Below are positions 1-57,600 of a stretch of 64,000 nt of DNA, piece by piece (positions within the stretch are counted from its first letter, which is position 1; the number at the start of each line of letters is the position of its first letter). The stretch is taken from assembly GCA_964374105.1 (NCBI GenBank), contig CAYJXI010000001.1:7743-71742 (forward strand), in the 5' to 3' direction. The position numbers and the translations under genes are program-made. The stretch comes from an uncultured Planctomycetales bacterium. GTDB lineage: Bacteria > Omnitrophota > Gorgyraeia > Zapsychrales > JANLHA01. The notes beneath the pieces are model-generated. The model was not told the DNA's origin, did not search any database, and saw only the letters and a program-made list of their open reading frames with translations.

Positions 1-1
1 T

Positions 2-33600: not shown

Positions 33601-36600
33601 GGCGATCCCTGAAGTTAAGGAAGAGGCAGCGACCGGTGAGGTCGTGAAAGAAATTTCGATACTAGCTTTTGAAGAAGTTAAGATCAAAGCGCCAAGCGTG
33701 ACTGAAGAACAGAAAGAGTTAACCGCGGAAGAATTGTTTGATTCCGTAATTCAAGAAATGGTTGAGAATATGCAAGTTTATATTGAATTAGAAGCTGATT
33801 TTGATGATTTCTGGACCGAAGTGACATCTGGGAAAAAGATTTCTTCTGAGGTGGCGCAAGCTGTCCGCCGGCGGTTGATTAAGGAGTTTGACGTGCATGA
33901 TCCTCAGCAATTTTTCAGTGTACTTATGGCCAGTCATGGCAAAAAGTATGGTTCTTATAAAGAGTTGTTTGAAGCCACAAATGTAAAGACAAAGGTGATA
34001 CGAAGAATTGATCGTGCTTATAAGCGCTTAACGGGCTTAAGTTTGATTGAAGCGACACAAGGTGGGGCAGAGGGAGAGGATCAAGAAGAGCAAACCCAAG
34101 AGCGACTTCCCAATTACTATCATCTTATTGGTATGAATACCCGAGGCCGCGCTGAGGCGCCGACACAGGGCGATGTTCATCGGTTCCTCTTAGGCAAGAA
34201 GCGGCTGACAGGTGAGTTAAAGGGACTAGCCAAATGGCTCGAAGGTCATCTTCCGACTTATCAAGGCGATACATTAGAAGATTATCGCAGAGAATGGACC
34301 AGGGTTTACGGTAAAGAAAAAGGTTCACCCAATCGTTCTGAACCAACCGCCACCCGTTCGGGTGAGCCGTTGAGTGAAGAGCAGAAGCGTCAGCTGAGGG
34401 AATATCTTAAACTCAAGGTTGGGCAATTCAGCAGTTATGCGGTTGTCGAAGACACGGCCATTGATACAACTATTAAAGCCCTAGGTGAGGTTGCCTTTGA
34501 AGTCTTGGCGAGTCGCTTAGAGCAACTCAAAGAAACCCGTAAAATCCGCGCCGGGCCGAATGAGATCTTTAGTGAACTTCAAGCTCTCGGCATTGCCTTG
34601 TTAGCATTCAATTATGAAGAATACGTCATTGTCCATCCGGAATTACTCGCCGCAGAAAAGCAAACCCGTCTAAGGCAGATTCTTGCTCATGAAACTGGTG
34701 CGATTTATGGTCTGGAACATCAAACCAATCGATTATTAGAAAAAGTCATCACTCAAGAATTGACGGCTGAAGAAAGGGAAGCGATCCACAACGAAATTGT
34801 TAGTTTGGCTCAGCCAGAGGAAGAACAGTTAAGATCCTTCCGCGAGCTTATCTTAACGAAGATCACCAGTGACGCCATTAGGCAAAAGGCAAAGCAGATA
34901 TTAACCAAGGCGCGATTAAGGGCCCTCTTACAGCCATCAGCTAAGCATTACACCAATGAATTTAAGCCCATTAAAGATATTTTTGAAAATTCACGATACG
35001 GAGAAACTATTAGATTAGTCAAAGAGGATACTAAAGCTATTGTTGAGGCCGTCAAAGAGATGAAACACATCTTGGCAGTTAATCCACAGAGCCATCTGTT
35101 TGACATCGAACAATGGGATGAAAGGGTCTATGCTCCTTCCATGAGAGGAATGTTCGATCAATTTGAGAAGAAATCACTGACCATTGAGGGACTTAAAAGA
35201 CAGATGCAGAAAATAGTAGAGCCATTTAGTGTAGCCTTTGATCTTACGGAATTCATTAAAGAAAGCGAGGAGCTCGAATTCTATCATTTGGTTGAGATCG
35301 GCGCTTGGGTTTTAGCCAAGATCATTATTCCGCATGGGTTGGTGATTCAGGTTTCTCCATTTGAATCCAACAAGCTGATTAAGGGCCGGGTCCTTAAGGA
35401 TCGAACCGAATTGATTACAACACATGGGGCAGGATTCTCAAGGCAGATTCCGGTTTATACCGTTGATGCTAAGATTTCCGAATTTGGTTCAGGTATTGCT
35501 AGGCCAGATTACATTGTCATGCCATTGAATCTCCAGCATGAAGAACCCCTTATTCATTATCAAAAGCTCTTTAAGGCCTATAGGGAAGGCCGTTATCGTC
35601 CTAAACCGTTTGATATTGACCCGCACGGCTTTTTGCTGGATTGGGTGATGATCAACCTGGTTGGATCCAAGACGACAAGTGAGGTACAGCAACTGCTTAG
35701 AAAAGAGGCACTTCAAGAAGAGATCGCCCATTCCGATACCTTTGCCTTTGTGGAAACCCTCTGGGACAGGAAATATCATTACTTTATGAGGAGTGAAACT
35801 ATCCAATTTGTCCATACGATTTTAGAACCCTCGGGCTGGTTAAGAGAGATGTTCAATCAGCATAAAGAGAAGCCTGCTCTTCACTCACTCACTGCTGATG
35901 CGATTATTGAAGTAGAGGCCAAATTGCAATCTTTGATGAAATCACCTTACCCAGCCCATACGGTCTTGGAGTTCTTGTTAGCCAGTCTCTTCCCTGAAAC
36001 TGCCAAACTTGAAAAGCCCCAATACAAGGTTGCCTATAACACGCTGACTGTTTTGTTGGCCGTCGAACTTTTGAATAAGCCAACCATTGAACTTAAAGAC
36101 TGGTTTGATTTCCTCAAAGAGGTTTACCGGGATCTTGATTTGTTCAACAAACTCCTACCGGAAACTGCAAAGGAAATTTACGAACGGCATTTCTACAGTC
36201 AAGAAGAACGAGTAGCAATTCTAAAAGGAAAAGGTAACAGTCACAAAGAAGCTGGCAGGTCCCTTAAGGATTCTAAGGAAGGGCCGCAGACACTCGCCGC
36301 GTTTGAACCGCTGACATTCATTGCCTTGTTAGCGGGTTTTGGGATTTTAGGAGTTTATATGACCAGATGGGTTGCCGGCAGATTCAAGATCAAAGGGTCT
36401 GATCAACAACACATGCACCGGCGTGGATTTATAAAATTAAGTTTAGGAACTATGGGCTTGGCGGCATTCGCTCCGTTATTGACATGCTGCTCTTTAATTC
36501 CAGGTTCATCGCCGCGTAAAATTAACTCAGATCATTTGATTCTCATCGGTATGGAACACAATGTGTTCGGGGATCCGCAACATCCCGCGAGTGTCTTGCA

Positions 36601-39600
36601 GAGACAGCTTGCTATGGCAGCCAGCCAAGGCGAAATCGTCTTAGGAATTGAGGAAGTTGTCCGAAACGATGCCTTTGAAGAAGAATTTATTAAAGGCCAG
36701 TACGGCTTCAAGAAAGGATTGATCTTTGGATTCGATGAGGAATTCCCTAAGCATTATATTCACACACTCCTCAACTTCGGTCTCCTAGCTATTGGTACGG
36801 GGGGAACGGCAACGGATGAATCTGAAAAAATCATTTTAAGAAGAATAACAACCTCGGCGAGGGTGTATTTACCAATTTTTATAAAGACAAGCTCAGTCGT
36901 TAGAGAATTCTGGAAAGAGCTACCCCGCCAGTTACCGAAAGATGAGGACGGTTCGCTCATAAGAGAATTATATGAAAAGATTGATCGTTTTGTGGCCTCT
37001 GAGAAGGATTCCAACCTTAGAGATTTTCAGACAAAGGCCTTTAAGGAGTTTGAAACTTTTGGTTCCAATATCCTTTGGTCTCGAATTTATAAGATTATGG
37101 CTTCTGCCATGACCGAGGAGGCTATGAAGCATTACAAAGAAATCCACTATCTTAAGGAAAAAATAAATGATTTCCTCAAGAATCCTGTTGAAGAGGAGAA
37201 CCAACGAATTATCATGGAAGAGTTAAATCACTACTGGCGTGAATCCTTTATTATCAAAAATATGAAGGCCATCGCGGATATCGCTATTGAAAAAAGGCTC
37301 CCTGTCTATTTCCTCATCGGATTTAATCATGTTAAGAAAATTGAGGAAGCTTTAGGGCAAAATTATCGGAATCTGAAGATTTTAACTTTTGAACATTTTG
37401 AACAATTCCCACAAAGGCTTTTACCCAGAATCCCAGAACGTGTTTCGGATGCGTTAAACAAACACCGGGTGTTTGGAGAATCATCCGGGCCTCAAGATGC
37501 CAACGAAAACGGCTTGCCGCGAGAGGTTGTTGATTTAGCGGTGTTGTTGACAGAAAGGATCACTAAGCAGCCGATTCAAGACTGGGCCGCAGTTAAGGTT
37601 GATTCTAAGAAAGTCCGACAGGCCATGGTCCTCTTAGGGAATGAAAATAAATTAAGACAGCGGTTGGCTGAAAGCGGGGTTCATTTTGTCCGCGCTCCTC
37701 CCAAGGTTAACATCCTTTGGGATGCTGTTGGGGTAGCAAACTACCGAGATCCCTCTGGCCGTCTTTTTGTCATTCTCCCGCAGAAGACAACCACCGAGGC
37801 GATTGCCCATGATCTTTGGGCGGTTATGAATCCTTCCCTGCCTCACTCCATCAATCCGATCAAGATTTCAAAAGAAGAATTAGACACAGAGACACTTGTT
37901 GAACTGATTGTTGAGACGACCCAAGATACCAAGGATATCTTAAGCCTGCTTGAACATCCGGGCCTGTCGGTTGAAGGCAAGGCCTATATGCTTATCGCCC
38001 TAATTCGCATTGGCCTACAGAATTCTATGCAAACCATCAGCCTCCAATTAGAAAACGAACCCTCCTCACCACAGGACTTGCTGGGTATGCTTGCAAATGT
38101 GCTGGGCCCGGTCTTAGCAAATCTCTTGAGCGGATCCTCCACATCCTTGCTGGAGAAAATCGAAAAGGATTTGGCTAATAGAGGGGACCAGATCATTCCT
38201 GTCTTTGAACGCGCCTTGGAGCTTTTTAAGACGGTGGAAGACCAACGGCAGCGGTGGTTTATTTACAGCGTCTTGAGTGAGATGAAAGAAAAGGGTCTCG
38301 CCGAGCTCATGCGCTATTTTGATAATCCGCCTAACCCTGCCGACCAGGAGTTCATTGTCTACGAGATCACTCAAATGGGTCCGCCTACGTCCATTGAGTT
38401 TGCTCAAAGTCATAAGTTGAAGGACTCGTATGAAACCGTCTTGAACTTTATTATTCAAGCCTTCACCCGATTTGTGCCGCCGATGTTAATGAGATACATA
38501 TTGCTTATGATAGCTAATGAAGGCGAGAAAGAGATTGTCGCTGATATCGTGCGTAAGATGGCGGAAAGCGATAAATCGTATTTTAATAAAATTTTGGAAT
38601 TCCTTAAGGCACAAGGCTCTCCTGATGTTGTGGAAAAATTAAACAAATATCTAGCCAAGGCTGAGGAGACGGGAGAGCAGGAATTCCACTTACCTAAGCT
38701 CAACGTGAATGAACTTAAGATAAGTGCATTTAAGAGTAGGGTAAAGAGGACGATTAAGGGAATCAAGGGCCTTGAGGATCTCCACACCCGGTTTGAGGAA
38801 GGGTTATTGGTGGCCAACGGTGAGCTCAATGATCTTAAGCGCGTGGTTATTCACGGAAAATATGCCGAAAATCGAAAAGCCGCAATTAAGGCTATTGAGG
38901 AAATCCTTCAAGTTGTAGCTAAGACCAAGTTGGCGGGAGGGCAAGTGAGGGTTAAGGGACAAATGATCACCAATGAGGAAGTGTTCCTGCTTCTCATGAC
39001 CCTTTTCCAAGTTCTTGATGAAGATCCAGAAGAAGTTGTTTATAAGGAATCGGCAAGGGCAGCGGTTGCGGTCATCCTCTTATTTATCACGATTGAGGAT
39101 GAGGATTTCCGCTGGGGTTATAAAGAGCGCTATCAATCGTATTTGGATAAACTGCTTAAGTCGCCGCGTATTGATTCGGTAATTGATGCCTTGATTGCCA
39201 TCCGCACCGATAAAGAAAAGGATGACAGGGTCTTGAAGGCTGCAAGGGCTATGCTTACCGATATTGTCAAGGCCCGCGGTCAGGGACCGGATAGCCTCAA
39301 GAAGAATAGGGAAAATGGAGACAGCGCCCAATTCCCTGAAGATTCTACCGCCACTCGTTCGGGTGAACCGTTGACAGAGGAAAAAGAACGGCAATTGAGG
39401 CAATACCTCAAACTGAAAGTTAAAGACTTCTCTGGTTATGGGGTGGTTAATGATACCGCGGTGGATAAAGTCATCACGGCCCTGGGTGAGTCCGGATTTG
39501 AGGTACTGGCGAAGCGGCTGGAAGAACTCAAAGAAACCCTCAAGGTCCGTGCTGGACCGAAGGCGATTTTCGATGAACTCAAGGCCCAAGGCATTGACCT

Positions 39601-42600
39601 GTTGGCCTTCAATTTCGATGTATGGTTGGTTGTCCATCCAGAGTTGCTTAACCCCGCCGAGCAAACCAAACTTCAAGAGATTCTTGCCCACGAGACCGGT
39701 GCGATTTTCGGTTTACCACACGAAGTCAATCGACTTCTAGAAAAAGTCACGACCCAACAACTCACTCAAGAAGAAATCCAGGATCTTTTTGATGCCGCCC
39801 AGGAGATCCTTAAATCACAAAAGATGACTCCCAGAAGTCCTGCTGGCCGACAGGAAAACGGAGCCTATCCTGCCTCAGAGAAGATCGCAAAAGAAGATAT
39901 CATCATCTCAGTGCCGTTGTTCTTCCTGGAAGGGACGGCGTACAATTCCATCCGGAAGTACTCTCTTCGACTAGAGAAGCTCAGAGGGATTGGTCCTCTC
40001 ATAAGAAGTGGACGATTCTTTATCTCTAAGTACTTCCTGCCAGAACTTATTGGTGTGGCTAGAAAATTACAAGAGCGGAAGGCGAATGCCATTCATTTTG
40101 ATGTTCAACAAAAAGAGGGAATACAAAGATTGGGAGTCCTCGGACAGGATATCACTAGGATCTATAATCCCAAATTAATCCGGCGGTTACGCCAAAACGG
40201 CGTGACCCTTCCCATCGAGGTACATCTTATGTATTGGCAACCCTCTTCCCGGTATTTGAGGGCTTACAGGCAAGCGGGGTTAGGTTCCCAAGATACCATT
40301 TTCATTCATCATAACGCTTACGAAGATCCTAAGGAATTAGTTGAAAAATTGGCGCTGATCCGCACCCTGGGGATAAGAGCGGGTATTGCCTTGAGTCTCC
40401 AATACGGCACTGAGGAATTGACCGAAGAGATGTTGATTTCTGCTGATGCCATTCTCTTGTCGGCGGTAATGGAAGGAACACGTGGAGGGACATTTGATTC
40501 CCTGGTGGCTCAGAAGTCGAAAGAAATTTTATCTAGAAATTTCCAGGGAAGGATCCACATCCAAGGCGGGATTAATAAAGAGACTATTGGAATTGCTGCC
40601 TCAGGTGGGGCAACGGCTTTCGTCTCCGGTACGTTTGTGACCCAATCACCGGATATGACAAAGGCCATGGGGATCTTAAGAGAAGAGGCAAGGAAAGGAT
40701 ACAAACAAATAACTGCCGGATACCAGGCTGTGCGTAGCGAGGGGATGGATAAGGTGTCTAGTCTTAATTTTGAGGTTCTGGCGGGCAAGACTGTCTTAGT
40801 AACAGGGGGCGCTGGCTATATCGCCGCTGGTGTTATCCATGATCTATTGAAGGTGAATACCGAGGTGGTCATTTACGACAACTCTATGCGGGATCGGGAA
40901 GAAATCACCAAAATGCAAGGTATCACGATAGTGGAAGGGGATTTGAGCGATCAGACATTACTTGAAAGAACGCTTAAGGAGCAAAGAGTTGCGGCTGTTG
41001 TCCACTTGGGGGCCTATATTGCCGCAGGGAACTCTGTGAAGAATCCTGGGAAATATTTCTTTAATAATGTTGTCAACACCCTGACCCTGTTGGATAGCAT
41101 GGACAGGGCAGGGGTCAAATACCTTGTGTTTGCCTCCAGCGCCGGTGTCTATAGCGGAACCCTATTCAATGAATCAGGATTATTGGATGAGAACATTACC
41201 CCGGATCCGCAGAATCCTTACGGTGAAACCAAATATCTGATGGAACGCCTGATGCAGGATTATACAACAAAGAAAGGGATCCGGTTTGTGGCTTTGCGTT
41301 TCTTCAACGTCGCCGGGGCGTTTGAGTGGCAAGGAAGATGGTTCGGCGAAAACCATGAAGGGCCTGAGACTCATCTTATCCCACGGGCGATTAAATCTTA
41401 TTTATATGGGAATGAATTGATCCCATTTGAGCTTTTTGGTACAGATTACCAGACACGTGACGGGACGACAATCCGAGACTACATTCATCTTTTGGATTTG
41501 GCTGATGCCCATATCCGGGCTTTGATTCATCTTTTTAATGGGGGATTGAGTTTCATATTGAATCTAGGGACTGGTCAAGGGTCGACTGTTCGGGAAGTCG
41601 TTGAGGGGGTAGCTAAGATTATTAAACTGGAAGAAAACAAGGAGTTCCGAGTTAAAGAGGGGCCACGGCGTGCAGGAGACCCGCCCATCTTGCAGGCCAG
41701 TAGCCAGAAGGCCTTAAAGCAGTTGGGCTGGCAGGTTAAGAGAGATTTACAACAAATTTTGGAGGATGCCTGGGTTTTCCATAATCTAGAGAAACAACAC
41801 GGCTGGTGGAATTTGAAGACCATCGCCCCCGAAGATCGCCTGACCACAACTGAGGCTGAGTTTAGAACAATGGTGACTAAGGAGTTGAAAGCGAATGCGG
41901 TCATCACACCGCAAACCCGGTTTGAAATTCTCTTTAGGTTGTTGATTGATTCGCTGGTTGAAGGAGTTAACGATTCTACATTTAAGTCTTCAGCACAATC
42001 CAGGGCGTTAGTCGAAGGAGCCAGAGGACTCAAATCCCAGCCGGGCGAGTTGATGGAAGTCATCCACAGCAACGAGAAATTCTTTGCTGATTTTGAGAAG
42101 TTCTTAGAATCCCAATTTGTTTCAACGGATCCCTCCCGCCTAGAAATCATATCTCAACTTAAAGAAGACCTTTCCTCAACAACTCTTGGCGGGGAATCCA
42201 ATCTAGCGGACGTGAGCGGTCATCGTGGAAGCCCAATCCCCAGCCGATTGGCCGAGATGAGGAAGAAAGGGAAGGGAAAAGAGGATCATCATCCTGAAAG
42301 AAAGATAGATCCGAGGGAAGGGCCCAATGGTCTTTCTGCGTATGAACCGTTAGTTATGCTTGTCTTGTTGGCGGGAGTGGGAATCTTAGGAATTTATAAG
42401 AAAAGGTGGTTTGCCAAGAGATCGGCTATCTTTGAAGGGCGTGTTGATCATCAAAGAGAATTTGAGATTATCGATCGGATTTATTCTTATGTCTTATCTG
42501 GTATTGCTCGATTCCAAACCACGTCAGTACTATTATTAACAATAACAACATTCCTAGTGCCATTTCCAACATTTTACTTGTCTCCATTGTTCTTGCCAGG

Positions 42601-45600
42601 CTGGATGATGATGCCCGCGATAATCATCCCTGTGGCTATCGTTACAATAATCAATTTTCTGGCTACAGTGAGCTTGAATATTTCTGATGTTCCTAGGGCG
42701 CCAAATGCGAGAATTGATAGATTAGAAAATATTTTTGCTAAATATTCCCTACGAGAATTATTCCAGAAGATGACTTCTTTCATCGTTAGTATACCCCTTT
42801 CCTTTAGAGAATTCAATGTCAGATTTAGCTGGGGTAGAAAATTTGAAGGGAATAGAAAAGGGAAACCAGAGGTTTCAGAAAAACAGACGAATTATAACAC
42901 GGCCCGTAATGTTCCATCAAGATTAACGAGCCAAGGCGAAAGAGGTGACAGTGATCTCTTTAGCTTTGATCAAGACGAGCGCCTTGGCAAAAATTATCCT
43001 GGGAGTCTTTTGATATCCAAGGAACTAAGACGAAAAGCAAAAGACAAGATTCGGCTATTAAAGGAATATGTTCAGAATGCCTTTAGGTCCTTAGATTTGA
43101 TTCAGCACGACTTGCATGTTCATTACGAAGATCGTAAAGGGAACACAGTTGCCGAATATCTGGGAGAAAGAAGAATTGCGCTTGATCTTGGGCTAGCGGC
43201 CGTAGCTCCATTATTGGATTCAGATATTACCTCGGTCCTTCGCTTCCAATCCTTGATCAGTGACATCATCCGTCATGAATCCAATCATTGGAGGAATGAA
43301 TATCAGAGGCTCGATGAGGGCTGGGATGAAATGCAGGTGCGGCTTTCTACTTATATGGAATTAGAAAAACCAGAGAATCAAGAGGAGTTGGTTGAGATCA
43401 TGGAGGCCTTCAAACAATTCCATATCATCGTAGACTCCTCCTATCTAGCGGGGTTAAGTACAAAATACAGGATTACCGTACCAAAACGATCAGAATTAGA
43501 TAGAAGCCTCGATCTTCTTAAGTCACCCCATGCCTGGCAGCGCCAGATTGCCGCAAGGGCCTTAAGGGTCATGGAACTGCCGCTTGAGAATACCGGCAAG
43601 ATAATCTTCATTATTGATTCCCTCTCTACCCGCGTAAAGAACTGGGAGGAAAAGGATGAAGATGTCCGTCTCTCTAGTATTGAATCGCTCGGCCGGATCG
43701 TTGAGAAGCTTGTCGTAACCAAAGGTATTCATGAAATTTATAACGCTTTGATTGCTGTCACAGCAGAACTAGGGATGGCCCTAAGGGTTGGGGGGAAAAC
43801 TAAGAACCGTCTGGCTATTGTCAGGACCTTGAGTGTTATTGGGGTTAAGACAGATTTTCTCATTCACGTTTTGCCTAGTCTCATTTATGCCCTTATTGAA
43901 GATACCGGAGTTGATGTCCGTCGCGAGGCATTGAAAGGTATCTTGGTAATCTTACGTCATCGACCTAAGGCGGTTAAGGAGGCCGTTAAATATATTGATG
44001 CAACTGGACAGGTGAGAACAACCTTTATGCACATTGCCTTTGATATGGGTAAATTTAAGGAACTGCGCAGTGTTCGGCAAAAGCTATTTGTCTATTGGAT
44101 GTTAGGGTTATCCCAAGATCAAAATATCAGAAAGGCCGGACTTAACGAAACGAATCGTAAATTTGCTCAAGGACAATTGGATAATCCCGATGAAGAAATC
44201 AAATGGCTGGCCAACGAATTCTTGAAATTGTTTGAGAATCAATCCAACCACAAACCTGAAGAAAAGTCAGGGGCGATCGGCGAAGGAAAGGCCTTTAAAG
44301 AGCGCGGTGAGATCAACGTAACTGGTTTAGATGAAAGGGAGCTTAAGATTGCCCGAAAGGGGATTAAAGAACTTAAAAAGAGAATTGAGTCGAGGAAGGA
44401 GCGGTTGTCAGCCGAAGATTACACCCAAGCCCAGGCGGTTGTAGCGACATTGATTAAGACTATCAACGAACCTTTTGGATTCAGGGCGTTTGCGGCCATT
44501 GTCAACGACGAACACGATTACCTCTTGGCCTTTAGCGATCTGGGCTTCATTGTTCTCACGGACGCGGTGTTTACAAAAGAAATGAGACCCTATTTAACTC
44601 GGATCCTTTTCCACGAAGGGTATGTGGCAACCTTTGGCGAAGGGTCATTGACTGATGAGGCGGTGCGCTTAAAGGCCCATAACGAGATTGTCCACGGTAT
44701 TGAAGACAGGATTTTTGGCGAGACAGAGAAGTATATCGCCAAACTTGAGGATTATATCCGCCGGCATATTTCTGCCATAGCTCCGTTTACGGATGGAGAA
44801 GAGAAACAAGAAGATCTTGAGGTGATTTTTGAGGACGATGATGAGTTGTTAGAAGGTTTAGGAAAATTTGCTGTAGAACCAGTTATGTCAGAAAGGCAAG
44901 CTAAACAAATCATTCCGCAGAAGATCACGAGTAGCAGCGACATCGGCGGCCGGCCAGAACAGCAGGATCGCTATGGGATTATTCCAATGAATTTAGAAGG
45001 CATTCCAAACGGCCGCGGCCTGCTTATGGCGATTGCCGATGGGCATGGGAAGCGGGGCGCTGAAATAGCCAAAAAAGTCATCAATAACCTGCCGGTTTAT
45101 TTTGCCGAAGCCTTGATCCAGCAGGGCGGCGATGTCAAGGAGGCCTTCCTCGATGCCTTTATTGACTTTGTTGAAGATACAAAAGATGAAGATAAAGGTG
45201 GAACAACATTATCAGTTGCCTATATCTCAGAGGGCGAGGAAAAGGTTTACGCGGCCTTTATCGGGGATTCTCTCATCTGGATTAGAAACCGCGATGGCGT
45301 GGTGGTAAGAAGACTCGGACACAGCGTAGGTGAAAATATTAAAGAGCGTGAGGCAGCCATTGCCCGCGGCGCGGTTTATAAAGAGTACGAAGGTGTTGGT
45401 TATATCAGACCATCGGATAAGACGAAAGTTGGGGAACTCATGATGAGCCGTTCCTTGGGAGATAAGAATTTTGATTCGATTCTTGACCGCATCCCAGAGA
45501 TATTCGAAGAATTTTTAAATGAAGAGAGCTTTATGGTGGTGGGCAGTGACGGCATTATACCGTTTACGATTAAAGCAGAAGAGGAAAAGGATCAGTACAT

Positions 45601-48600
45601 AGCAGAAAAGGTTTCAGCCGGTCTCAATGCTGAGGATATTGTCAATGACACCACAACCAGCGCCGAAGTTGCGGCTCTGGCTTTTAGCAAACACCCGTGG
45701 ATTGTCGATAATGTTACCGCCATTGTCTGGCGTGCCAGCAGAAAACAAAGAAAAGAGCATGTCCTCAATACAAGGCCACAACTCCTGTTAGAGGCACCGC
45801 CACAGCGAAAACTCTTGCCACGACCGGCACCGAGAGGGCTAAACGAAAAACGCATTTTTGAAGAATTAGAAAAATTAAAGGTGACTGTCACCCAAGGCGA
45901 TAATCACCTTTTTGTGGAACGATTGCAAAATGCAGAAGATAATGCCGATCGCATCAAGATATTGTTAGAAGCATATCCACTGGAAGGCGTCAACATCGAG
46001 GTTGCCTCACCCAGAGGATTTTTAAGTTTTAGGGGAGTCGGTCGAACCGAAAGAAAAGGTCCACATCATTATCAGATCACCTTGATAGGGGTATCAGGAG
46101 ATGTCGAGATTTATCTTCTGTTCCATGAATTTTTGCATGTGTACTTAGAAGAAAAAGGCTTGACCTTTAATCCGGTCGTTGAAGATGAATCCTTAAGTCA
46201 GTATCTCTTTAAGTTAAAGAACTTGATTAACGATTATATTATTGAGAAAGAAAACAAGAGACGATTTGGCAATCGTTTTGTTCATATCACCCGAGATTTA
46301 CGAGATCGAGATGTCAGAGGTAATCTTATGGGTATGGGGTTGGGCACAAATCTGGAAATCTTTATGCTTGCGTTAACTGCCAAAGTGACAACTTCCCTGT
46401 ATCCCGAACTAGCCGACTCCTTCTCTCAACAATTTATTGGCAAGGCGGTTGAGTACAAACCTCTAGATAACGTCCTCAAAGAGCTTCAAGGTGTCTCTAT
46501 CGCAAGTAGCCCAGAGGAATACAGAAGAACAATCACAAGACTCCAGGAGTTAATGACGAAAAGTTCTCTTACCTTTGAAAATGATCGGCCAGTTGTTTCT
46601 CTTAAGGAAACTAAGAAATTCATCGAAGAGATTGAAGCAGATATCCGCAGATTAATGAACTTAATTAGCGGTCAAGAGAGAGGCACGGCAAGTGAGGAGA
46701 AATTGAACACTTATTCCGAATTGCCCGTAACAGCAGAAGATCATAAACGGGCGGTTGATCAGTATTCTTTAGGTCAACAAAAAGAAATTGTTCATACCCA
46801 ATTGGCTTTGACTGAGGAAGGTCTTCAACTCGAAGTTGTTTCTGGTTCATTAATAAGTGATGGGGAGAAAACACTCAAACAGGATCTTAACAAACTTCTT
46901 GAGGAGATCCGTGGGCCGCCCGAGGTACTGAAGGACATCATTGATGTGAAACTTGTGATCACCACCCAACCCACCCAGTTAAGAGACGGCAATAGATACA
47001 CTATCTACATTTCCTCTGTCAATATCATTCGAAGGACAGTTTATCTCCATCCACAGTACTTCTCAATCAGTGATCAGAGATTAAGGCTGGATATTCTTTA
47101 TCATGAATTGGTCAGTCATCTCTTTAAACGCATCAGAGACGAACAGATGGCGATGGCTGATACCAAGGCCTTCCGGCAAAGACTGATTCAGAAAATCCAA
47201 GAAGATCTGGCCGTGTATCCTAGGATCTTCTTACATGAAATCACTAGAAACCTCAAACAAAAATTGGATCAGCAAATCTTTTCTATGGCAAGAACCCTCA
47301 ACCAAGGATTAGCGGAATATCCATTTATCAAGATCATTGACAGTATGAATGAATTCTTATCACAGATTGCGGAGAGATTAACTCATCCGGATGAAAAGAT
47401 GAGGATTTATCCTAAGGTGGTTGTCAGGACTCATGAAACCGATGCCCGTCATACCGAAGTTCCCATCACTCACCGCCAGGCGAGAGTGGCGGTCTTCCCA
47501 GTGGCGGGCAATCCCTTGCACTGGGCGCATATTTTGATCGGACTTAAAGTCATAGCCCAATTTGGCATCGACAGAGTTATTTATCGTATTCAGGGTTTAG
47601 ATGATCGCAAACCTGATCTTGAAATCAATGAGAAACTCCGCCATCACATTGATGAACAAATGATGAAAGTCTTTGCCCCGCTTTTTGACTATTCCCCATC
47701 CGGAAAAGGTTCCACCTTTGACGGCGAGACTGATTTTGACCGATACTATGGCTTTAATGCGGGGGTGAAACTGGATCTGTATTATGTGGTTGGTGCTGAT
47801 CATTATCACCGTGAGGTCAACGGTAAGGTAGATACCATAGGCAAGTTGGAAAATTTTGCTGTCAAGGCCGGTCGGGAAATCCAGGATACCTTTGTCATCT
47901 TTATTAAGCGAGGCGAGCTAAAGCACAAGGTTGAGACAGAGCTTAACGTCAATTTTGTGGATGAGATCACCTTTGAGGCCTCCTCGTCCATGGCGAGATC
48001 CGGCAATGTCGCTATCATTCCGTACCTGATTTATCGATATGCACAGAAACATCACCTCTGGTGGTTTACTCAATTTTCTACGCATACCATGACTGAGAAA
48101 ATTAAAAGATCGCTCAGATATGAGATTCATAAAATTGCAAAGGTGCTTAACCGCGGTTTAGAAGATCATCCATTTAATAAAATGTTACCAACAATTGATA
48201 AACTGTCTGCCAAGATCGCCACCCGATTGCACAATGACAATATCAATCCTCAGGTTGTGATCCGAACCCACGAAAAGGATGAACGAGAAATCAATTTATT
48301 CGGCAAACAAAGAATAAGGATTGCTGTCTTCCCGATCTCAGGGAATCCAATCAGTTTAGGCGATCTCATTGTCGCCTTAGGAGCCATGGCTGATTGGGGG
48401 GCAGATAAAGTCATCTTTGTTCCGGCCGGGCAAGAAAAGGACAAGGATTTTGTGGTCGCAGAAGAATACCGACATAGAATCGCAGAAGAGCTTTTGAAGA
48501 GATTGGCTCCCTTCTTTGAATATTCCCCGATTGCCAAGGGAACAACGGATGATGGTGAGACACTTTTCTTAAAATTCTTTAAGTTGAATCAAGGACAGAC

Positions 48601-51600
48601 CATTGAGTTTATGTATATCGCTGGAGCAGAGCATTACAATCGTGAAAAAGATGGAGAATTAGACACTATTGGTAAACTCGAGAAATTCCTTCCCGAGGCT
48701 GGGGTCGATTTTAAATTTGTCAAGGCCATCTTCCATCAGATGGAAGAATACCCAGTCACCCAAAAAATAGAAAAGATTCTGAGGGTCATGTTTATGCCAG
48801 CCTTTGAATTTCTGGCCTCCGCTCGACAGGCTAGAAAAGGAGATTTAAGCGCCGTTCCATTTACAGTTTATCGATTTGCTAAAGAAAATCAATTGAATTG
48901 GTTTGGATTAGAAAAACCGCAAGCTATCTCCACCTCACCTAAGGTTTCTGACATGGCGGGCAGTACTCAGCCGACAGCTACCCCACCGGTTATACCACCG
49001 GCAACCGAGGCCCCCCGCAGCGATAACAGCATCCGCAATGGACAAGGCGGCGGAGAAGATCAGCAAAAAGATCCCAGACGTAGTGTGCCGGGAGAATCGG
49101 TATTATCAGCCGAGGAGGTCAAAGGCGAAGTGGAAGATCGATTAAAAGAAGTCGAGGGAGATATCACCCGCTTCAAAGATATCCGCTCACTCAATCCCGG
49201 TGCTGTTCAATTAGCCTTGAATTCATTACCGATGGTGGAATCGGGGAAACCCGGCCAGATGATGGCCGGTCTCTTGGAGGTGTTCATTAAAGCCGGACGT
49301 GTCCGGGCCGGGCCTTTCAAAGAATTTTTAGCAACAGCCTATAAACACACCGATCAACAAGCCCGCCTGCCCCGTACAAGTTCCTCCGGGACTCTACGGG
49401 GCCTGCCGGACGGGCAGGAATATATCCTTCTTTCCACCCTTTATCCGGAGTACTTCAACAAACTGCAAATCGCTGCTTCCCTCATCCACGAAATTGGCGC
49501 TGTGTCCACATTCAATAAGTCAGAAGATGAAAATATCAAACGCCATGAGGCTTTCTTAAAACTTTCTGATAACCTCATGCGATATTCAGGTCCAATTGTT
49601 TTGGATCAACGCTTGTTTGAAATGTTAAGCCGCATGCAGTCCACCGGGAAACCGGTCATTACCGATCTTTCCTTAGAGGCCTTCTTACCCGAATTGAAAG
49701 GCGAAGCGCAAATGAGTCTTGCCAGTGGTGGGTTAGGCTTCCTCACCGGTGAGACCTGGGGTGCCTACCATCATTTAGAACAATTCCATGGAATAGGGGT
49801 GATGCCGCTTTATGCCCATTACTTCAATTCCTCAGGACAGTGGGTGAAGATTGATTGGCTAAATACCGAAGGGATTAAACCGGTCATGGTTAGAGATGCA
49901 CAAGGTAACGAAAAGATCCTTAGTTTCGATGTGGTTTATAATCGTCATCATTCCTATAAAGTGGAAATCTTCTGGATCAATCGAAATGGGATTCCGGTCT
50001 TCTTGATTTACGCTCCCCCAATTTTTAATCGTCTGTATCCGGGGGATGATCATCAGATCACCCAATTTACTTTCTTTGCCAGAACCTATGTCGAATTGAT
50101 GAAGAGACTGGGAATCCATCCGGATGTCGTGAGATTAAATGAACCCCAGCTTGTATTCGTGGCTTCCGCTATCAAGAACGATATTGATTGGTTCAATGAA
50201 TATCGAAAACAATCCCAGAGGGAAATCTACAGTAACTTTGAAGGTTCGCTCATTGTTACTACCATTCATACTCCCGAAAACGTGGCTATTCCCAGATGGT
50301 CGGCGGATTGGCTGAAAAATCATATTGGAGAGGATCTGGTGAGAGACTGGGACGGCGCTCGCGAGGCAATTGTCTATGAAGACTGGATAAAGAAAGTCCA
50401 TTCGGCGGTAGGGGTGGCGCGAGTCTCGGAGATCATCAATGCCGTCTCAGAGGAACATGCAGAAGTCACCAGGCTCGTTGTCCTGCCGCAATATAGAGAT
50501 AAGATTGTAGGGATTCAAAACGGCTCTGATCCAAGGTTGTGGTACTCACCGCAATTACAAGCAAAGGTTGATTCAGTGATCTCGCAGGAAGACATTACCG
50601 GAAAAGAATTATTTGACATTGGTCAGGCTCAGAAGGTTGCCCTCAATGAATATCTAGAAAAGAAATTTGGACCAGAGTTTAAATTCAGTGATTTACAAAG
50701 ACCATTGATTGGCCTGGTCAGACGGCTCGTGGCTTATAAGGAACAGAATATTTTGATTCCACTTATTCATTGGATTGTGGGTGATCGAAATCAATCCTAT
50801 GAAACTCCGTGGGGATTGCAGAATGGTCTGGAGGCTAATTTACTCATTGGCGGACATGCCCGGGATAGTTTTGGTGGTGAGTGGGTCAAAATATTTAAGG
50901 AATTGATGTATGACCAAAGAGTGAAAGGTAAATTCATCTTTGTCAATGATACCGGTATTGAATTGATGCGCTATGCCACCTCGGCCTCGGATATCTGGGT
51001 GAGTATCCCAAGAGCGACCCGTGAGGCCTCAGGCACAAGTGATCAGCGCGCCGCCCTCAATGGCCATTACAATATCGCCACCGCCACCGGCGGGCCGTTG
51101 GCTTATATTCAACACGGAGTAACAGGTTGGTTCATCGATGCCTTTAAAGACTGGAATTTTGAGGAAGTTGTTTATCGCTTTGACCGATTCGATCCGCAGA
51201 TTATTCAAATCTTCCAGCAGCAGGCGGCATTGCAGTTACATCTGTATTTAAAGGAGGCCGTGCAAAGATATTATGCCTATGTTGAAAACAGTGATCAAGC
51301 CTGGCTTGAGGGGATGCGGCAGGCCTTCCTCATGGCTCACCAAGAAGTGGCGATCAAGGTCATGATCGAAAAGTATGGATTGCTTTTTGAAAGCGCCTTA
51401 GATCAAACCGGGGCTCAGGGGTATCTTAAAAAGTACGATATATGGAAGAGGTTAAAGTCACAAGTCACAAGTCAGAAGTCATCCCTCGCTATCGCTCCCC
51501 GGCCCGCCAATCACAAGAGCCGGGGCGGGCAGGACAGGCAAGTCACAGGTCACATGTCAGATGACATCCCTCGACAAGGCTCGGGACAGGCAAGCCACCC

Positions 51601-54600
51601 CGGCCCGACAGAGCCGCAAGGCGGGGCGGGCATGCCACATGACACAAAGGAGGGTGACAGTCACCTTCCTTCGGCCATTGGCAAGGGAAGGGCGGTGGAA
51701 GAAGCCAAGAGTATCGCTCTTGAACCGCTTAAAGACCAATACCTTGAGGCCATTAATCGGGCAAGGAATGTCTTAGAAAGATTGGCGAAAGATCAAACGA
51801 TTCCTTTGGATGACCGGGAGTTTCTCATTCGCCTCCTTGGTTATCTTGAGGCCATGGGGCTGTTGTTAAATCAGGGAATCGTCACTATTGGGACATTTAA
51901 GGCGATCATTCGAGCGGTTGATGATTATCTGTTAGGATTCGGCGAACACCAGCCCATGCGGGTGACATTATCCATTGAGGTATTGGATGCAATCTTGAAG
52001 GATTCTTCTTTAAATCCAGAGCACATGGATCTTTTGATTGCCGAATATCTCTTCCATGAGGTTTATGCCTCCTTTGCACCGGAAGTGGATACCAAAGGTC
52101 AGCGTGATGAAGAGGAACACAAACGACGTTACGAAGGGATTCAGCGCCGGCTCTTTGGCAAAGAAAATATATTGGCTAAGTATTTGCGGGGTGTCCTTGA
52201 AAGTCATCTTTCACAGCCTGAAGTGGTTTCAAAAGCCCTCGATTCCCTCCCCCTTGTGGGGAGGGTTAGGGAGGGGGTGGAATCACAGTCTTCACCCTCC
52301 CCTAGCCCCTCCCATCAAGGGAGGGGAAGTGAAGAAGAAGCTGTAGAGAAAGTTACTAAGCCATTGACACGTGAAGGAGAGGATGAGCTGGCGGGATCAA
52401 ATATCCTGGATGTCATGAAGGAAGAAATCGAAAAGTTGCAAAATCATGTGATAACCCAGCGTCTTAAGAAAATGGAACTCCCGAAAGAGATTTTAGGATT
52501 TATTGGGGAAATAGATCAGTTATTGATGAAACTTAAGACCTCCACACGTAAAAATAAATTCAGTTTGATTCTCCAAATTTTGATTGCCATGAGCCGATTG
52601 CTTAAGGATATATCGCTAGGTGGAATGGACTTGGAAAAGAGACTTGTTGGATCAGAGTTTACTAATGAGCTAATGGGGCAATTTGAACGCCTTGGGATCA
52701 AAGGAAATCTGCAAATCATAGGCCTTGGTGATTTTTCTAGTGCCGGTAAAATCAACGAGGCCGTGGGATATATAAAGGCTTATGTCACCCTTCTTCAGAT
52801 AACCACCCGAGTTATCTCCCTTAAGGCCATGCGCTCTGGGCTAGAATTTGTCCTCAAAGGACCAGAAACCGATCAATTCTTTTTTACTCCCCTCTTTGGC
52901 CCCTCGAAACAAATTCGGGAAAAAGTGACCTGGAAACAAACAGGGGAGATCAGGCCATTATCGGATGTGGATTTGTTTGTTGAACAGTTGCGGTCATTGT
53001 TAAAGCGTCTCAATGAATTAGAAGCCATCCATGATAAAGCGGATCGGGAAACGATTGGGGAGATCTACCGTGATCTTCTCAAAGAAGGGGAAGATTTGCT
53101 TTCTCAAGAGAAGGGATACAAGGCTCCCACAGCCGATGGCAAGGCAGGATTGACCGGTGAGTTTAGGACTCAATTAGAAATATTCTTCCTTAAGATGACA
53201 ACAACGATCAATTGGGATATCCAGGTATTTTCAGATAGGTATTCGCAAACGTTTAAGTCAAGTATGTTTAAGTCGCTGGGCTTTGTTCAGCATTATTTTG
53301 GGAACATCATAAGACTCATGGGGATTGAGGAAGTAAGGGTATCAAAACTATTTAGTAATTTTGAGTTTAGAGCGGAATTAGCTAAAGAACCAGGAATGAT
53401 CACTCTGGATAAGGAAGAATCATTCGTGTTTGAGATGCAAACCTTGTCTTCCTTTGTTGAGGACAAATTAAGAAGACGTCCCGAGGCCCGTAAATATTTT
53501 GATTTTATGAATCAATTGAGTAAGAAATTCAAGGGTCAACTATCAAAAGTTCTATTTGAAGTAACGGTTTCGGCGATATCGATCAATGTCCTCTCAGAAG
53601 TACTCAAACTCTATTATTCCACAACAAAGATTAAAGACCAACAAAGCCAGCTGAAGCAATCATTAACCAAGTTCTTTGATAATTCGAGGATTCTAAGTGA
53701 GAAGACCGATGCGAAAGAAAAGGATCAATTGAGGGAGACCTTAGTCGATTTGATAAATCTTTTTGATCGAGTTGGGAGTGATGATGAGATAAGAGAGATC
53801 TTCATCAAGATGGCCCAATTCCGAGGCATTATGGATGCCTTAAGTTTTGATGAAACAAAAGCTCCAAAGATAGATCTGCCGGTTAATCAGCACTTGACTG
53901 ATCCTAACATAGATCAAATGGAGTATGTGATCCTTCAGCCCGGGATTGAGGCCTCCTTATACCTTCCCACAATAAAGGCCTTAAAGAAACGCAAGTTTAC
54001 GATTGTAGAAAATGATTTGTTCGCAAGGGAGTACTTAAAGAAGCTCATCGAGGTCATGGGTCTTGAATCAAGGGTAAAGATCAAAGAGATGGATTTAACT
54101 CGCCTTAAGGATGAATTTAAAGAAGAGAGCATCTCTACCTTAAGAATCAAAGAGGACGCGATTGCCTGGGATGAACTCCCAGAGGAGTGGTTTAAGACAT
54201 TGCCTTCCCTTATTGCCAAAGGCGGCGATATTCAGATTGCCCTCAAACCGCAAGGGTCAGAATCCAAAGTGATTCAATTGAAGGAAGTCCTGGAATCAGA
54301 AAAGGATAGACCTGAGGTTAAATTGATCCAGATGCTTTATCAGCACTTGGTTATTGAAAACAAATGGTCATTAGAATTTGGTCGCATGGGTAAGGGTAAA
54401 TTAGCCACGATGAAGACTGGCTTTGAGCGGAATGATATATATTTCGAGACGTTATTTATCTTTACCAAACCATACCCCGTTAAAAAGGAAGAGGCGAAAG
54501 CAGCAGAAGAAGTTGAATCTCAAGAACCCGAAGAAAGCGAGGAGCCAACTCTGCCGCAAGAAGAGACCATAAAACCAGACACAATCGTCTTGCCGGCAGA

Positions 54601-57600
54601 TCATGCAAAGTATGACGAAAGACTTTTTGCCGGGGACGCCAAGGCAGCGGAAGATATTTTCTTTGAGATCATCAGCGAAATATTGATCCAGAGAGAAGAA
54701 GCGAAAGAACTGCGGTCTGTTGTCATCAGGGCGAAAGTCAACAACGAAGGTGTGAGAGGCGCCTTTATGAGGCTGGGGATGATTGAGGTCAGGGAAGATG
54801 AAGACCGAGGCCTTTCCTTTGAAGAACTCCTCTTATCCTTAATCAAGCAGCAGGCAATCAGTTCAATAGAAGGCAAGAAAGTCAATGGCATCATTCACTT
54901 GATAGTGACGTGGGAGGAGCCAATTAAGGGAATTGAAAAAACCACCTTTCGTTTAGACCCGACTTACAAATTCAGTGAAACCTTCCGGTCCTTATGGAAA
55001 GAAGAAGGCGATTCTGTTGTCATCAATCCAAAGGCCGTAAGATCAAATAGGGTCGCAGAGACTTTTGTCCAATACTTGAGGAATGGCCTGCTGATATTGG
55101 ATGAGTTAAACCCGATCCCAGAAATGACCTTTGGCTTTACAACACAACTGGTCAATAAATTCCTCGATCAATTCAACGAACCTGCTTGGCTTGATCGGTG
55201 GTGGCCTGAAGAACACTATGAAGAATATCAAAAAGAGTTAAGACAGAGAGCGGTTGTCAAAGCTCAAGAAGACCAAGAGGCCAGAAAAGAAAAACTAAAA
55301 AAGAAAGAAAAGAAACCCGAAGGTGAACCCGAACATTACCCATTATCCCGGCAACTCAAAGAAATCTTTGCAAAGGAAATAGAAAAATTACAAAACCATC
55401 ATCTGGTCAAAATCCTTAAGACGTTGCCTCAACCGGAAGAGATTAGAAGGCACTTAAAAGAGGTTGAGGAAGTTATCAATGAGATCAACCAACTAAGCCG
55501 ACATGCCTTGCCTAAGAGATACCAGGGTATCCTTCAAAAACTGGGAACACTCATTAGTCAACTGGCCATGTCCGCCGTAAAAGCGGCTGTTGGTACGTGG
55601 ATGGAAGCTAAATTTAGCCAGTCGATGGGGTATATCAACAGTTACGTTATCGTCTTAACCAATACTTATCGTTCTATCAATATTAGAAGTAAACGAGCAG
55701 GCCTTGATATTGAATTAATAGTCTCTGAAGAAATTTTGGGACTTTTGAAAATTGATTCCCTGATTTTTGCTAGCGAACGGTTAGCTATTGAAGACTTAAC
55801 TCAATATTTTGGTTACCTTATGGAAATTTTGGATATCCTTGAATCCGTCAATGACCATTACAAAGAACTTCCTGAATTAAGGGAGACCTATGCAGAAAAT
55901 CTTAAAGATCTCATTGAGGAAGGGAAGGAAATGTCTCATCAAGCCATGCTTATTTTGCAAGATCAAACCAGCCCAACCGATTCAATCTTGGACCTGAAAT
56001 CTGAACATTTGATCCAATTGGAAATTTTTATCGCTCATCTAGTGAGTCTTTTAACCTTGACGCATGAATTGGTTTGGCCGGTCAGCCGTGAGAAACGCAT
56101 CAAACATCGTTTGGAATCATTTGGTCAATTGCAACAGAAGCTGATGGCTCTCTTGAAGGCCATAGGCGAGAAGGATCTTAATTCCAATAGGATTTTTGGT
56201 TATGACTATCGAGAATTTGCTCTTGCCTTGCCCGGCGCAGTCATGACAAGTCAGGATGAACATATTCTGGTTGAGAAAATTAATTTGATTCAAGAAATCC
56301 TTCAGAAATTTGAAACGCAGGCCGAAACAAAGAGGTTCCTTGATTTCTTTAGGAATCTAATAACGCAACTGATTGACTGGGGGATCTATGACGCCCTGGA
56401 AAGTTATCCTGCCAGGGATTTAGTTACCTTGATGGCGGCTGACTTCTTGAAGCGATTCTATTCAACGCCTCAGACCGCATCACTAAGGGAGCGAATTTTA
56501 ACGGCCTATCAAGCTCATCTCGAGGCCAATACAGATCAGATGGCAGTGATTCTTTTCTCGCGCGGTCAGCCGCCCCTTAATGAATACACGGTGCTGGTGA
56601 ATCTTGCCCAGAACGCTCAGAACGATCCATCGGCCGCCGGCCTCATAAGTTTATTAGCCAAATATCAACTCATAGTTGATTTATTAAAATTGCATAGAAC
56701 AAAGTATCAAACGAGACCCATGCCAGACAAGATTGATCCCAAGAATCCTAACGTCAATCAGTTCCCTTATGTCGATTTGGAAACAGGATTTGACGGTCTT
56801 TATAATCTCGTAGAACTTGAAAAAATAAAGGAGCGTCAGTTTATCTTGACCGATAATCCTTTGTTTGTCACTGAGTATCTTAAGAAGGCCGTTGAAATTC
56901 ATGGGTTAACCGGTCATGTCAAAGTGAAGAGTGTGGATGTTTTCGCTATTCAAAATGCCTTTGAGAAAGAGAGTATTGGCTCTTTAAGGATCCGCAGGCG
57001 AGTCCTTGAAAAGTCATCAATAAAAATTCAGAGTCCAGTCCTCCAAGAGATGACCGGGCTAAAAGAGGCAGTGACACTGCCTACCGATTGGTATTTGAGA
57101 TTGGCAGAACTCCTTGTAGAAGGCGGTCAGATGATCATTGATTTTAGTATACCAATGACCCAATCTAATACTCTTCTTGAAGTCCTCTCGAAATCAGGGG
57201 TTAGCTATCAAGACCATCCTTTAGTTCAAAAGATCGGGGTACTAATCATTAAATTCATAAGGCAGATTTATCAAGACTTGGTTACTCATCGGGGATGGGA
57301 ATTCCATGTCAAATTTGGCGGCTATAACAAAGAGGGAGAGTTTGTTAGTTTCACGGAACTTAAGGAGTCCAGCGAAACCCAGGAACAAGTTGTTATTATT
57401 ACCTTCACTAAACTCTCTAAGGGTGGTGAGCCCAAAGAGCCGCCTCAAGAAACTAAATCCAAAGAAGAAAAGCCCCTCACCCTTGAGGAACTCCTTAAAG
57501 TTAACCTTCTTTCTCGATTCAAAGACCAGTTGCGGAAATTAGAAGAACATCCTATCGTTAAACGCCTACAACGTGAACGCTTGAAACAATTTGAAGTCTA

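Follow-up and report, generated by a model that had tools for sequence, protein, structure and literature searches.

Six enzyme-like domains inside a giant membrane-associated open reading frame of an uncultured Omnitrophota bacterium

The question raised by the 64,000-nucleotide stretch of DNA analysed here (the window), which derives from an uncultured bacterium placed in the Omnitrophota, is what a run of six enzyme-like domains is doing inside one very long open reading frame (ORF). The enzyme block spans nt 39890-51420, which corresponds to aa 13297-17140 of the ORF, and features domains related to ribulose-phosphate 3-epimerase (RPE), UDP-hexose 4-epimerase (GalE), PP2C phosphatase, NadD-type nucleotidyltransferase (NTase, present twice) and the GT35 alpha-glucan phosphorylases. 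The reading favoured here, with moderate confidence, is that the block is a segment of a multi-enzyme giant protein of the Omnitrophota type, which is threaded through the membrane, is more than 21,333 aa long and is made of independently folding enzyme domains.

The ORF fills the window. Counting stop codons by frame over the 64 kb found none in the 21,333 codons of frame 2 of the plus strand and 893-1653 in each of the other five frames. A length of at least 21,333 codons agrees with the multi-enzyme giant class of Omnitrophota, in which a single ORF of at least 10,000 aa is expected. An earlier note on this DNA had described a single unbroken ORF, and stops or frameshifts that split the domains were indeed not found. 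The window contains no N bases and the enzyme block contains no near-identical nucleotide repeats. The repeats in or near the block are diverged copies with 68-72% identity, and assembly collapse or a chimera is unlikely because of this divergence. Distinct enzyme Pfams are found across the ORF with none dominant (CTP_transf_like, PRK, ChaN, two DnaJ, GNAT, RPE, Epimerase, PP2C and Glyco_transf_5/Phosphorylase), and outside the enzyme block the window is Pfam-poor and repeat-rich. The ORF and the features at the block, in their order along it, are the following.

nt 2-64000, plus strand: single ORF of 21,333 codons, open at both window ends
nt 39350-39802 (aa 13117-13267), plus strand: fourth copy of a small zincin-like module (the adaptor), with HETGAIFGLPH at nt 39689-39721; 88 aa separate this copy from the RPE-like domain, and it lies outside nt 39890-51420
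nt 40064-40639 (aa 13355-13546), plus strand: RPE-like TIM barrel
nt 40793-41806 (aa 13598-13935), plus strand: GalE-type UDP-hexose 4-epimerase
nt 42332-42679, plus strand: three-helix hydrophobic cluster (aa 14111-14132, 14172-14197 and 14203-14226), from hydropathy and Lys/Arg counts
nt 43499-44281 (aa ~14500-14760), plus strand: helical region with a weak HEAT signal, preceded by residues without a family
nt 44924-45736 (aa ~14975-15245), plus strand: PP2C phosphatase domain
nt 45749-47206, plus strand: stretch of ~490 aa without a family, containing HEFLH (nt 46124-46138) and HELVSH
nt 47207-48067 (aa 15736-16022), plus strand: NTase1, of NadD fold with an N-terminal helical hairpin
nt 48068-48904 (aa 16023-16301), plus strand: NTase2, its tandem duplicate of NadD fold
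nt 49112-49525 (aa 16371-16508), plus strand: diverged fifth adaptor copy, with HEIGAV at nt 49487-49504; the copy lies 32 aa ahead of the GT-B domain
nt 49619-51421 (aa 16540-17140), plus strand: GT-B domain related to GT35 over its full length

Judged by their motifs, GalE, PP2C and NTase1 keep the catalytic or cofactor motifs of their families, and the RPE-like barrel, NTase2 and the GT-B domain are each without a defining residue. The hallmarks of short-chain dehydrogenase/reductase and GalE proteins are a GxxGxxG NAD site, a catalytic Ser and a Tyr-x-x-x-Lys motif. The GalE domain features the complete set: GGAGYIA (nt 40805-40825, aa 13602), ASSAGVY (nt 41132-41152, aa 13711) and YGETK (nt 41219-41233, aa 13740). 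Pfam Epimerase (PF01370) and GDP_Man_Dehyd match aa 13598-13922 with 161.6 and 133.3 bits, and the TIGR01179 galE equivalog scores 318.7 bits, above its cut-off of 262.3. The homologues of this domain are stand-alone proteins of ~370 aa with 40-44% identity. An RPE-GalE fusion was found neither among the 24 above-threshold protein matches nor in a metagenome scan with the RPE-GalE segment.

The PP2C domain scores 34.6 bits with PF00481 (cut-off 20.3) over aa 15008-15185 and aligns in part with MspP and 2i0o; its NCBIfam score is well below the cut-off there. It keeps the motifs RPEQQD, ADGHG, GGTT, IGDS, GSDGI and VDNVT, of which DGHG and SDG align with PP2C structures and RPEQQD and VDNVT were assigned by inspection only.

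Neither NTase region has a Pfam match, the best hit of a single-sequence PDB search was only E 0.5, and the NadD scores from NCBIfam are weak, at 25.7 and 24.1 bits below an equivalog cut-off of 150. Their identity was settled by the internal duplication, by the alignment of homologues and by an AlphaFold2 model of NTase1 built with 18 homologues (pLDDT 88.6). The 50 best PDB matches of this model in Foldseek are all NadD (E down to 2.2e-8, TM 0.80), with identity of 13-21%. NTase1 shares with NadD and other HIGH-motif nucleotidyltransferases the HxxH motif (PLHWAH, nt 47510-47530) and the C-terminal SSxxxR motif (SSSMAR, nt 47981-47998), however, the Gly of HxGH is Ala. NTase2 is 38% identical to NTase1 (E 1.8e-61) and features PISLGD (nt 48344-48364) and SARQAR (nt 48818-48835) at these positions, so that both His and the SS motif are lost; the absence of both histidines had been pointed out in the earlier note. 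A tandem NTase pair also occurs in the closest giant relative (locus L008), and because both of its copies keep HWDH, the dead NTase2 is peculiar to the protein described here. The tandem with a motif-less second copy sets the pair apart from NadD, as does the extra N-terminal helical hairpin, which is common to a separate family of ~390-aa proteins, often with signal peptides. These stand-alone homologues have 33-38% identity and one is named as Elusimicrobiota. Most of them (P0001-P0013) have signal-peptide-like N-termini and Ala/Pro-rich linkers, which would not be expected of an NTP-dependent nucleotidyltransferase. A scan of genome contigs with the NTase tandem as query found no relative, and the window itself was matched neither there nor in the metagenome scan. 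A third NadD-like copy is located far upstream in the ORF at nt 3176-4003 (aa 1059-1334); it resembles both NTases, features NPIHLSH and is the only one of the three with a Pfam match (CTP_transf_like, 22.2 bits).

In RPE the two acid/base Asp residues also ligate the metal, together with two His. The barrel scores 64.1 bits with PF00834 (Ribul_P_3_epim; cut-off 21.1) and 74.5 bits with the TIGR01163 RPE equivalog, below its cut-off of 212.6, and its PDB RPE matches reach E 2.9e-13. Alignment with the PDB structures reveals TIM-barrel homology and retained metal/catalytic positions at His-x-Asp (HFD, nt 40094-40102) and VHLM (nt 40220-40231), however, IQGG (nt 40559-40570) replaces the IDGG of RPE and the second catalytic, metal-binding Asp is Gln. 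Further changes relative to the solved RPEs are QQ for MD in the first motif and VMEGTRGG for VNPGFGGQ. The reading of this domain as a canonical ribulose 5-phosphate epimerase fails because the second Asp is Gln.

The GT-B domain matches the TIGR02094 alpha-glucan family phosphorylases with E 4.5e-29 over profile positions 12-593 of 600, at 101.7 bits and below the cut-off of 191.7. The PF00343 score is 27.2 bits (cut-off 27), and Pfam as a whole gives a weak, mixed signal of Glyco_transf_5, Phosphorylase and Glycos_transf_1 over aa 16638-17050. Among PDB sequences the domain matches 9l6i best, an alpha-glucan family phosphorylase (E 7.7e-10). The domain shares with GT35 (TIGR02094, for example 9l6i) its full-length homology, the GGLG loop, TTHTP, NxVS, RR..YK and the EASGTS loop. 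It differs from GT35 in having NEPQ for NEGH, in an N-terminal half that scores better with the GT5 starch synthases (PF08323), and in the residue that binds pyridoxal phosphate (PLP): the EASGTSxxK of GT35 is EASGTSDQR (nt 51023-51049), in which the Lys is replaced by Arg. Alignment A2 shows that nine of nine clade members carry TREASGTSDQRA or a near variant including the Arg and that the three GT35 outgroups all carry the PLP Lys. In clade and outgroups alike the RR..YK anion site (R638, R639, Y643 and K644) does not vary, and the EASGTS loop is invariant too. The Arg-bearing clade belongs to Omnitrophota and Elusimicrobia. The reading as a canonical glucan phosphorylase fails because the PLP Lys is Arg. 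The clade-wide Arg looks like a stable change of chemistry and not like decay; changed function is favoured because the Arg is conserved throughout the clade together with the anion-site residues. Homologues with 44-55% identity are proteins of ~650-1000 aa from metagenome-assembled genomes (MAGs) of Elusimicrobia and Omnitrophota, and the best matches include Elusimicrobia and 'uncultured Planctomycetales' MAGs. One such stand-alone PLP-less GT35-like gene, from Elusimicrobia (L001, nt 1-14051), is located directly downstream of a gene for an 8,393-aa protein and a PorV (type IX secretion) gene and is followed by a C11 peptidase gene.

All six domain identities proposed in the earlier note are supported by Pfam, NCBIfam, PDB and structure-model evidence, and profile searches recovered the named families, the NadD-like one weakly. 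The catalytic residues that it had listed for checking are present in GalE (the Ser of ASSAGVY and YGETK of the S/Y/K triad) and in PP2C (the RxxxxD, DGHG, DG and DN motifs with the metal-binding Asp residues); among the His/Asp ligands of RPE, those in HFD and VHLM are present and the second Asp is Gln. At least three of the domains (GalE, the NadD-like NTase and the GT35-like GT-B) have ordinary stand-alone homologues.

The earlier note had further proposed that an operon's worth of sugar-nucleotide and glucan metabolism is fused into one membrane-anchored polypeptide. The clade alignment was used to scan species-representative genomes and gave 27 GT-B loci, mostly from Candidatus Omnitrophota MAGs. 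Twelve of the 27 copies lie in bounded ORFs of 825-1520 aa, and the other 15 are in ORFs that are open at one or both ends of the locus, 12 of which fill the whole locus, with lengths up to at least 7268 aa. One Omnitrophota giant ORF (L025, nt 7847-15310) features three PLP-less GT35-like copies. The order NTase-NTase...GT-B is shared only with L008, in which the tandem lies 1280 aa upstream of the GT-B domain and a third NTase lies downstream, and none of the loci has RPE, GalE or PP2C alongside GT-B. Other Pfams in L008 are a PolB-type NTase, a GT5 glycogen synthase (182 bits), DUF218, HAD, PRK and the PRPP-synthetase N-terminal domain. The genes for the stand-alone NTase and GT-B homologues are not adjacent to each other or to GalE, RPE or PP2C genes, the NTase gene being isolated, and the fused-operon idea is not supported, as no common neighbourhood was seen. 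Since there is no shared operon and only L008 shares part of the order, the block is a lineage-specific mosaic with a nucleotide and sugar theme and is not a conserved fused pathway cassette. What stands of the earlier proposal is that the domains were correctly identified and are fused in one polypeptide associated with the membrane; the roles suggested there, remodelling of surface polysaccharide or an attack on another cell's envelope, are conjectural. The sugar-nucleotide and glucan theme fits this ORF and L008, however, a pathway is not supported by the gene neighbourhoods or by the three of six domains without defining residues.

The favoured multi-enzyme giant protein would string its enzyme domains between helical linkers, hydrophobic helix clusters and the small zincin-like adaptors, and the polypeptide would keep chemistry of the nucleotide-sugar and glucan type tethered to the membrane. 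GalE would interconvert UDP-Glc and UDP-Gal. The PLP-less GT-B domain keeps its anion site and EASGTS loop, and its likeliest activity is not phosphorolysis of glucan but PLP-free binding of, or transfer from, a sugar donor that carries a phosphate, as in GT5 and GT4. NTase1 may adenylylate or cytidylylate a small molecule that carries a phosphate, the dead NTase2 may be its structural partner, PP2C may be regulatory, and the RPE-like barrel may bind a phosphosugar while being incapable of the canonical two-base epimerisation.

The membrane side on which these domains would act depends on the hydrophobic helices. The earlier note counted two membrane segments between GalE and PP2C, whereas hydropathy gives three. 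The first helix and its upstream flank form a repeated module with ~50% identity to aa 12075-12130. The loop after this helix (aa 14133-14171) contains 9 Lys/Arg in 39 residues, and the turn between helices 2 and 3 is 5 residues long. According to the positive-inside rule the loop would be cytoplasmic and, taken with the segment at aa 12140-12166 described below, the RPE-GalE segment (aa 12167-14110) would be extracytoplasmic, and the PP2C-to-GT-B segment would be cytoplasmic if all three helices cross the membrane; the placement is based only on hydropathy and charge counts, which are crude measures. Two DnaJ J-domains elsewhere in the ORF argue that some of the protein, if not all of it, is on the cytoplasmic side. 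Two internal segments resemble twin-arginine translocation (Tat) signals and are located at aa 6773-6797 (nt 20318-20392) and aa 12140-12166 (nt 36419-36499). In each, RRKVFK or RRGFIK comes after a transmembrane helix and a basic loop and leads into a hydrophobic stretch and Cys (CTGC/TCC-SLI). The segments may act as signal anchors within the protein or as sites resembling a lipobox.

Three points weigh against the multi-enzyme giant protein reading. An extracytoplasmic RPE-GalE segment would be hard to square with UDP-sugar chemistry, because the substrates of GalE are expected in the cytoplasm, and the predicted sidedness is ambiguous. Many of the stand-alone NTase and GT-B homologues have signal-peptide-like N-termini. 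Half of the enzyme domains are, by their motifs, non-canonical and a coherent pathway is not demonstrated.

The first two of these points would suit a different arrangement, an extracytoplasmic or prey-directed effector array in which the domains are exported or delivered and act on the envelope of a target cell or on its pools of nucleotide sugars, NAD or glycogen, resembling the multi-effector toxins. This possibility is regarded as unlikely. The signal-peptide-like starts of many stand-alone NTase (P0001-P0013) and GT-B (P0041-P0043) homologues, the GT-B homologue adjoining the 8393-aa gene and PorV, the internal Tat-like RRxF.K segments at aa 6773 and 12140 and the positive-inside pattern that puts RPE-GalE outside are all consistent with it. 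The literature links Omnitrophota giant proteins to predation or attachment (10.1101/2023.11.21.568195, PMC10066038), and in a 2026 preprint metabolic Pfams are predicted to be periplasmic in the longest protein (10.64898/2026.06.07.730766). However, GalE, NadD-type NTases and PP2C require cytoplasmic substrates (UDP-sugars, NTPs and phosphoproteins), the J-domains imply contact with cytoplasmic DnaK, a Pfam search of the window at E <= 0.001 gave no domain of the glycoside-hydrolase, lytic or pore-forming kind, and the topology comes from hydropathy and charge counts only.

The adaptors bear on whether the giant product stays in one piece. Five copies are found in the ORF, two of them at the enzyme block as listed above and three upstream; the first four were located by self-comparison.

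nt 15926-16366 (aa 5309-5455): adaptor copy 1
nt 30422-30874 (aa 10141-10291): adaptor copy 2
nt 34349-34798 (aa 11450-11599): adaptor copy 3

The module is ~150 aa long, matches no Pfam entry and features the signature RAGP...AFN...HPEL...HExGAxxGxxH. Its His-Glu...Gly..His residues are kept in nearly all of ~35 aligned copies. HExxAxxGxxH has the metzincin spacing HExxHxxGxxH with another residue, Ala in the majority of aligned copies, in place of the middle zinc-binding His, and peptidase activity is doubtful because of this replacement. The structural model of the adaptor has a zincin-like topology, in which a small sheet and an 'active-site' helix with HE are followed by Gly and His at metzincin spacing. 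The likeness to metzincins and minimal zincins (deuterolysin, proabylysin, selecase, Wss1 and YbeY) is in this topology and in the HE/Gly/His spacing; the adaptor differs from them in the replaced second zinc-binding His, in the absence of the conserved Met-turn and in lying outside Pfam. The fifth copy was identified with a broadened-profile hidden Markov model (independent E 1.3e-6) and with hhalign (probability 92.8%, E 4e-7). Other inter-domain HExxH-like sites (HESNH, HEFLH, HELVSH, HEGYV and HEVYAS) were considered as adaptors, and only aa 16371-16508 qualifies; apart from a borderline signal ahead of PP2C at aa 14840-14873 (E 1.4e-3, probability 17%), the others gave none. In 3.8 kaa, two matches to HExxH are about what chance would give. 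The adaptor often lies immediately ahead of an enzyme domain. It is rare: when 1.84 billion representative proteins were searched with its profile, only 28 matched, most of them of 1200-6900 aa. All of the named ones are from Candidatus Omnitrophota MAGs and most are thousands of residues long; among them are proteins annotated as 'mannose-6-phosphate isomerase' (5930 aa) and 'glycogen debranching enzyme N-terminal domain' (6885 aa). A conserved adaptor and GT-B cassette was rejected, since the other 26 loci have no adaptor upstream of GT-B.

If the adaptors served as cis-processing proteases or as recognition sites, the giant product would be a polyprotein that is cut into enzymes and whose fusion serves only co-expression. 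The chances of this are rated as low. The direct placement of adaptors ahead of PGM and zinc-dependent alcohol dehydrogenase (Zn-ADH) domains in other Omnitrophota proteins and the near-universal His-Glu...Gly..His would agree with it, and West-Roberts et al. have proposed cleavage of giant proteins via C39/S8 domains (10.1101/2023.11.21.568195). However, the central His of HExxH is replaced, and only two clear adaptors are found at the block, one just upstream and one inside, with none demonstrable for PP2C and the NTases. Quite unlikely is a self-processing and partly exported poly-enzyme, in which the adaptors would mark or catalyse cleavage, the Tat-like anchors would export folded, cofactor-loaded domains (for example NAD-bound GalE) and the enzymes, once released, would work in the periplasm or inside a prey or host cell that is attached. 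If it were true, the protein would be a bacterial membrane-threaded analogue of MARTX and would include a new PLP-independent GT35 branch.

The residue losses could also suggest a mostly non-catalytic scaffold, in which the enzyme-derived domains would be ligand-binding or structural pseudoenzymes in a giant membrane coat. One Asp is lost in the RPE-like barrel, the nucleotide-binding motifs in NTase2 and the PLP Lys in the GT-B domain, the RPE, NadD, PP2C and GT35 scores are well under the equivalog or family cut-offs, and the rest of the window is poor in Pfams and rich in repeats. However, GalE scores above its equivalog cut-off with complete cofactor and catalytic motifs, the PP2C metal-site motifs are all present, the motifs of NTase1 are those conserved in its stand-alone family and the GT-B Arg is conserved in the clade with the anion-site residues, which suggests changed function; a mere scaffold is very improbable. 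An assembly or annotation artefact that falsely joined several genes in one frame, for which the repeated modules and the probably metagenomic source of the window might speak, is hardly credible against 21,333 consecutive sense codons, repeats of only 68-72% nucleotide identity and independent MAGs with comparable ORFs that fill loci of >21 kb.

The remaining features of the ORF surround these domains. Between the hydrophobic segments and PP2C lie ~750 aa without a family, which include ~270 aa with HESNH (nt 43274-43288) and then the weak HEAT-like repeats. The HEAT signal (HEAT E 0.0024 and HEAT_2 E 0.012) is below the Pfam cut-offs and the matches cover only aa 14503-14569. The stretch at nt 45749-47206 has no family match in Pfam or NCBIfam and no significant match to the adaptor profile, and no PDB sequence matches were found for aa 14227-14956 and aa 15250-15735. 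Just past the enzyme block, aa 17445-21333 (nt 52334-64000) consist of degenerate ~700-aa repeats with 22-39% identity between copies and no Pfam match. A large internal duplication of ~1,150 aa (nt 23357-26893 and 26747-30322; aa 7786-8964 and 8916-10107) has 30-56% identity, and each of its copies terminates in a DnaJ J-domain (69 and 75 bits). A PRK/uridine-kinase domain is located at ~aa 2775-2873, and L008 has a PRK domain too. At the nucleotide level, a 110-nt element that encodes LDSLPLVGRVREGV..SSPSPSPSHQ is 90% identical at nt 17899-18008 and nt 52219-52328, which are 34 kb apart; close to it is a 40-nt tandem repeat (nt 17536-17671), with a diverged relative at nt 51583-51638. The GC skew has a spike of 0.44 at nt 22001-24000, compared with ~0.1 elsewhere, and the GC content there is up to 0.50.

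Omnitrophota giant ORFs are among the longest genes known, and the block offers concrete, testable modules: a GalE that is expected from its motifs to be active, a GT35-derived clade with a systematic Lys replacement, an active/dead NadD-like pair and a rare zincin-like module that precedes enzymes. These modules bear on the choice between a tethered enzyme array and a polyprotein, on the membrane side of action and on the function of GT35-like domains without PLP.

MARTX-type multi-effector toxins can be likened to this protein, as they are very long proteins that carry an array of unrelated enzymatic domains and possibly an embedded processing protease. RTX repeats and a CPD domain, which are features of MARTX, were not detected here, where no test was aimed at this likeness, and the present protein differs in being threaded by many helices. 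Closer at hand are the giant proteins of the Omnitrophota themselves, whose ORFs are described as common in this phylum by Seymour et al. 2023 (PMC10066038). West-Roberts et al. 2023 (10.1101/2023.11.21.568195) report Archaeovorin-type giant proteins rich in GT5/GT1 glycosyltransferases and propose a role in predation. The 2026 preprint (10.64898/2026.06.07.730766) describes a 'multi-enzyme metabolic' class with a sugar-metabolism module of PF08323, PF00534, PGM and ROK kinase, gives both a cytoplasmic-anchored and an extracellular hypothesis, and predicts metabolic Pfams on the periplasmic face of the longest protein. The set of RPE-like, GalE, PP2C, tandem NadD-like and PLP-less GT35-like domains with its catalytic-residue losses is not mentioned in the available parts of the papers on Omnitrophota giants, nor is an adaptor-like module in those of the two giant-gene preprints (10.1101/2023.11.21.568195, 10.64898/2026.06.07.730766). 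The giant-protein class is already known; the domain set, the assessment of its residues, the GT35-like clade with Arg for Lys and the zincin-like adaptor are new here. The window differs from those giants in that Pfam finds no dockerin, C39, S8 or SecA-like domain in it. It shares with them a length of >10 kAA (thousand aa), many hydrophobic helices, many enzyme Pfams with none dominant, poor cross-genome conservation, GT-B domains of the starch-synthase/GT1 type, GNAT, kinases and HEAT-like scaffolding, and its relatives are mostly (GT-B) or, when named, all (adaptor) in Omnitrophota MAGs.

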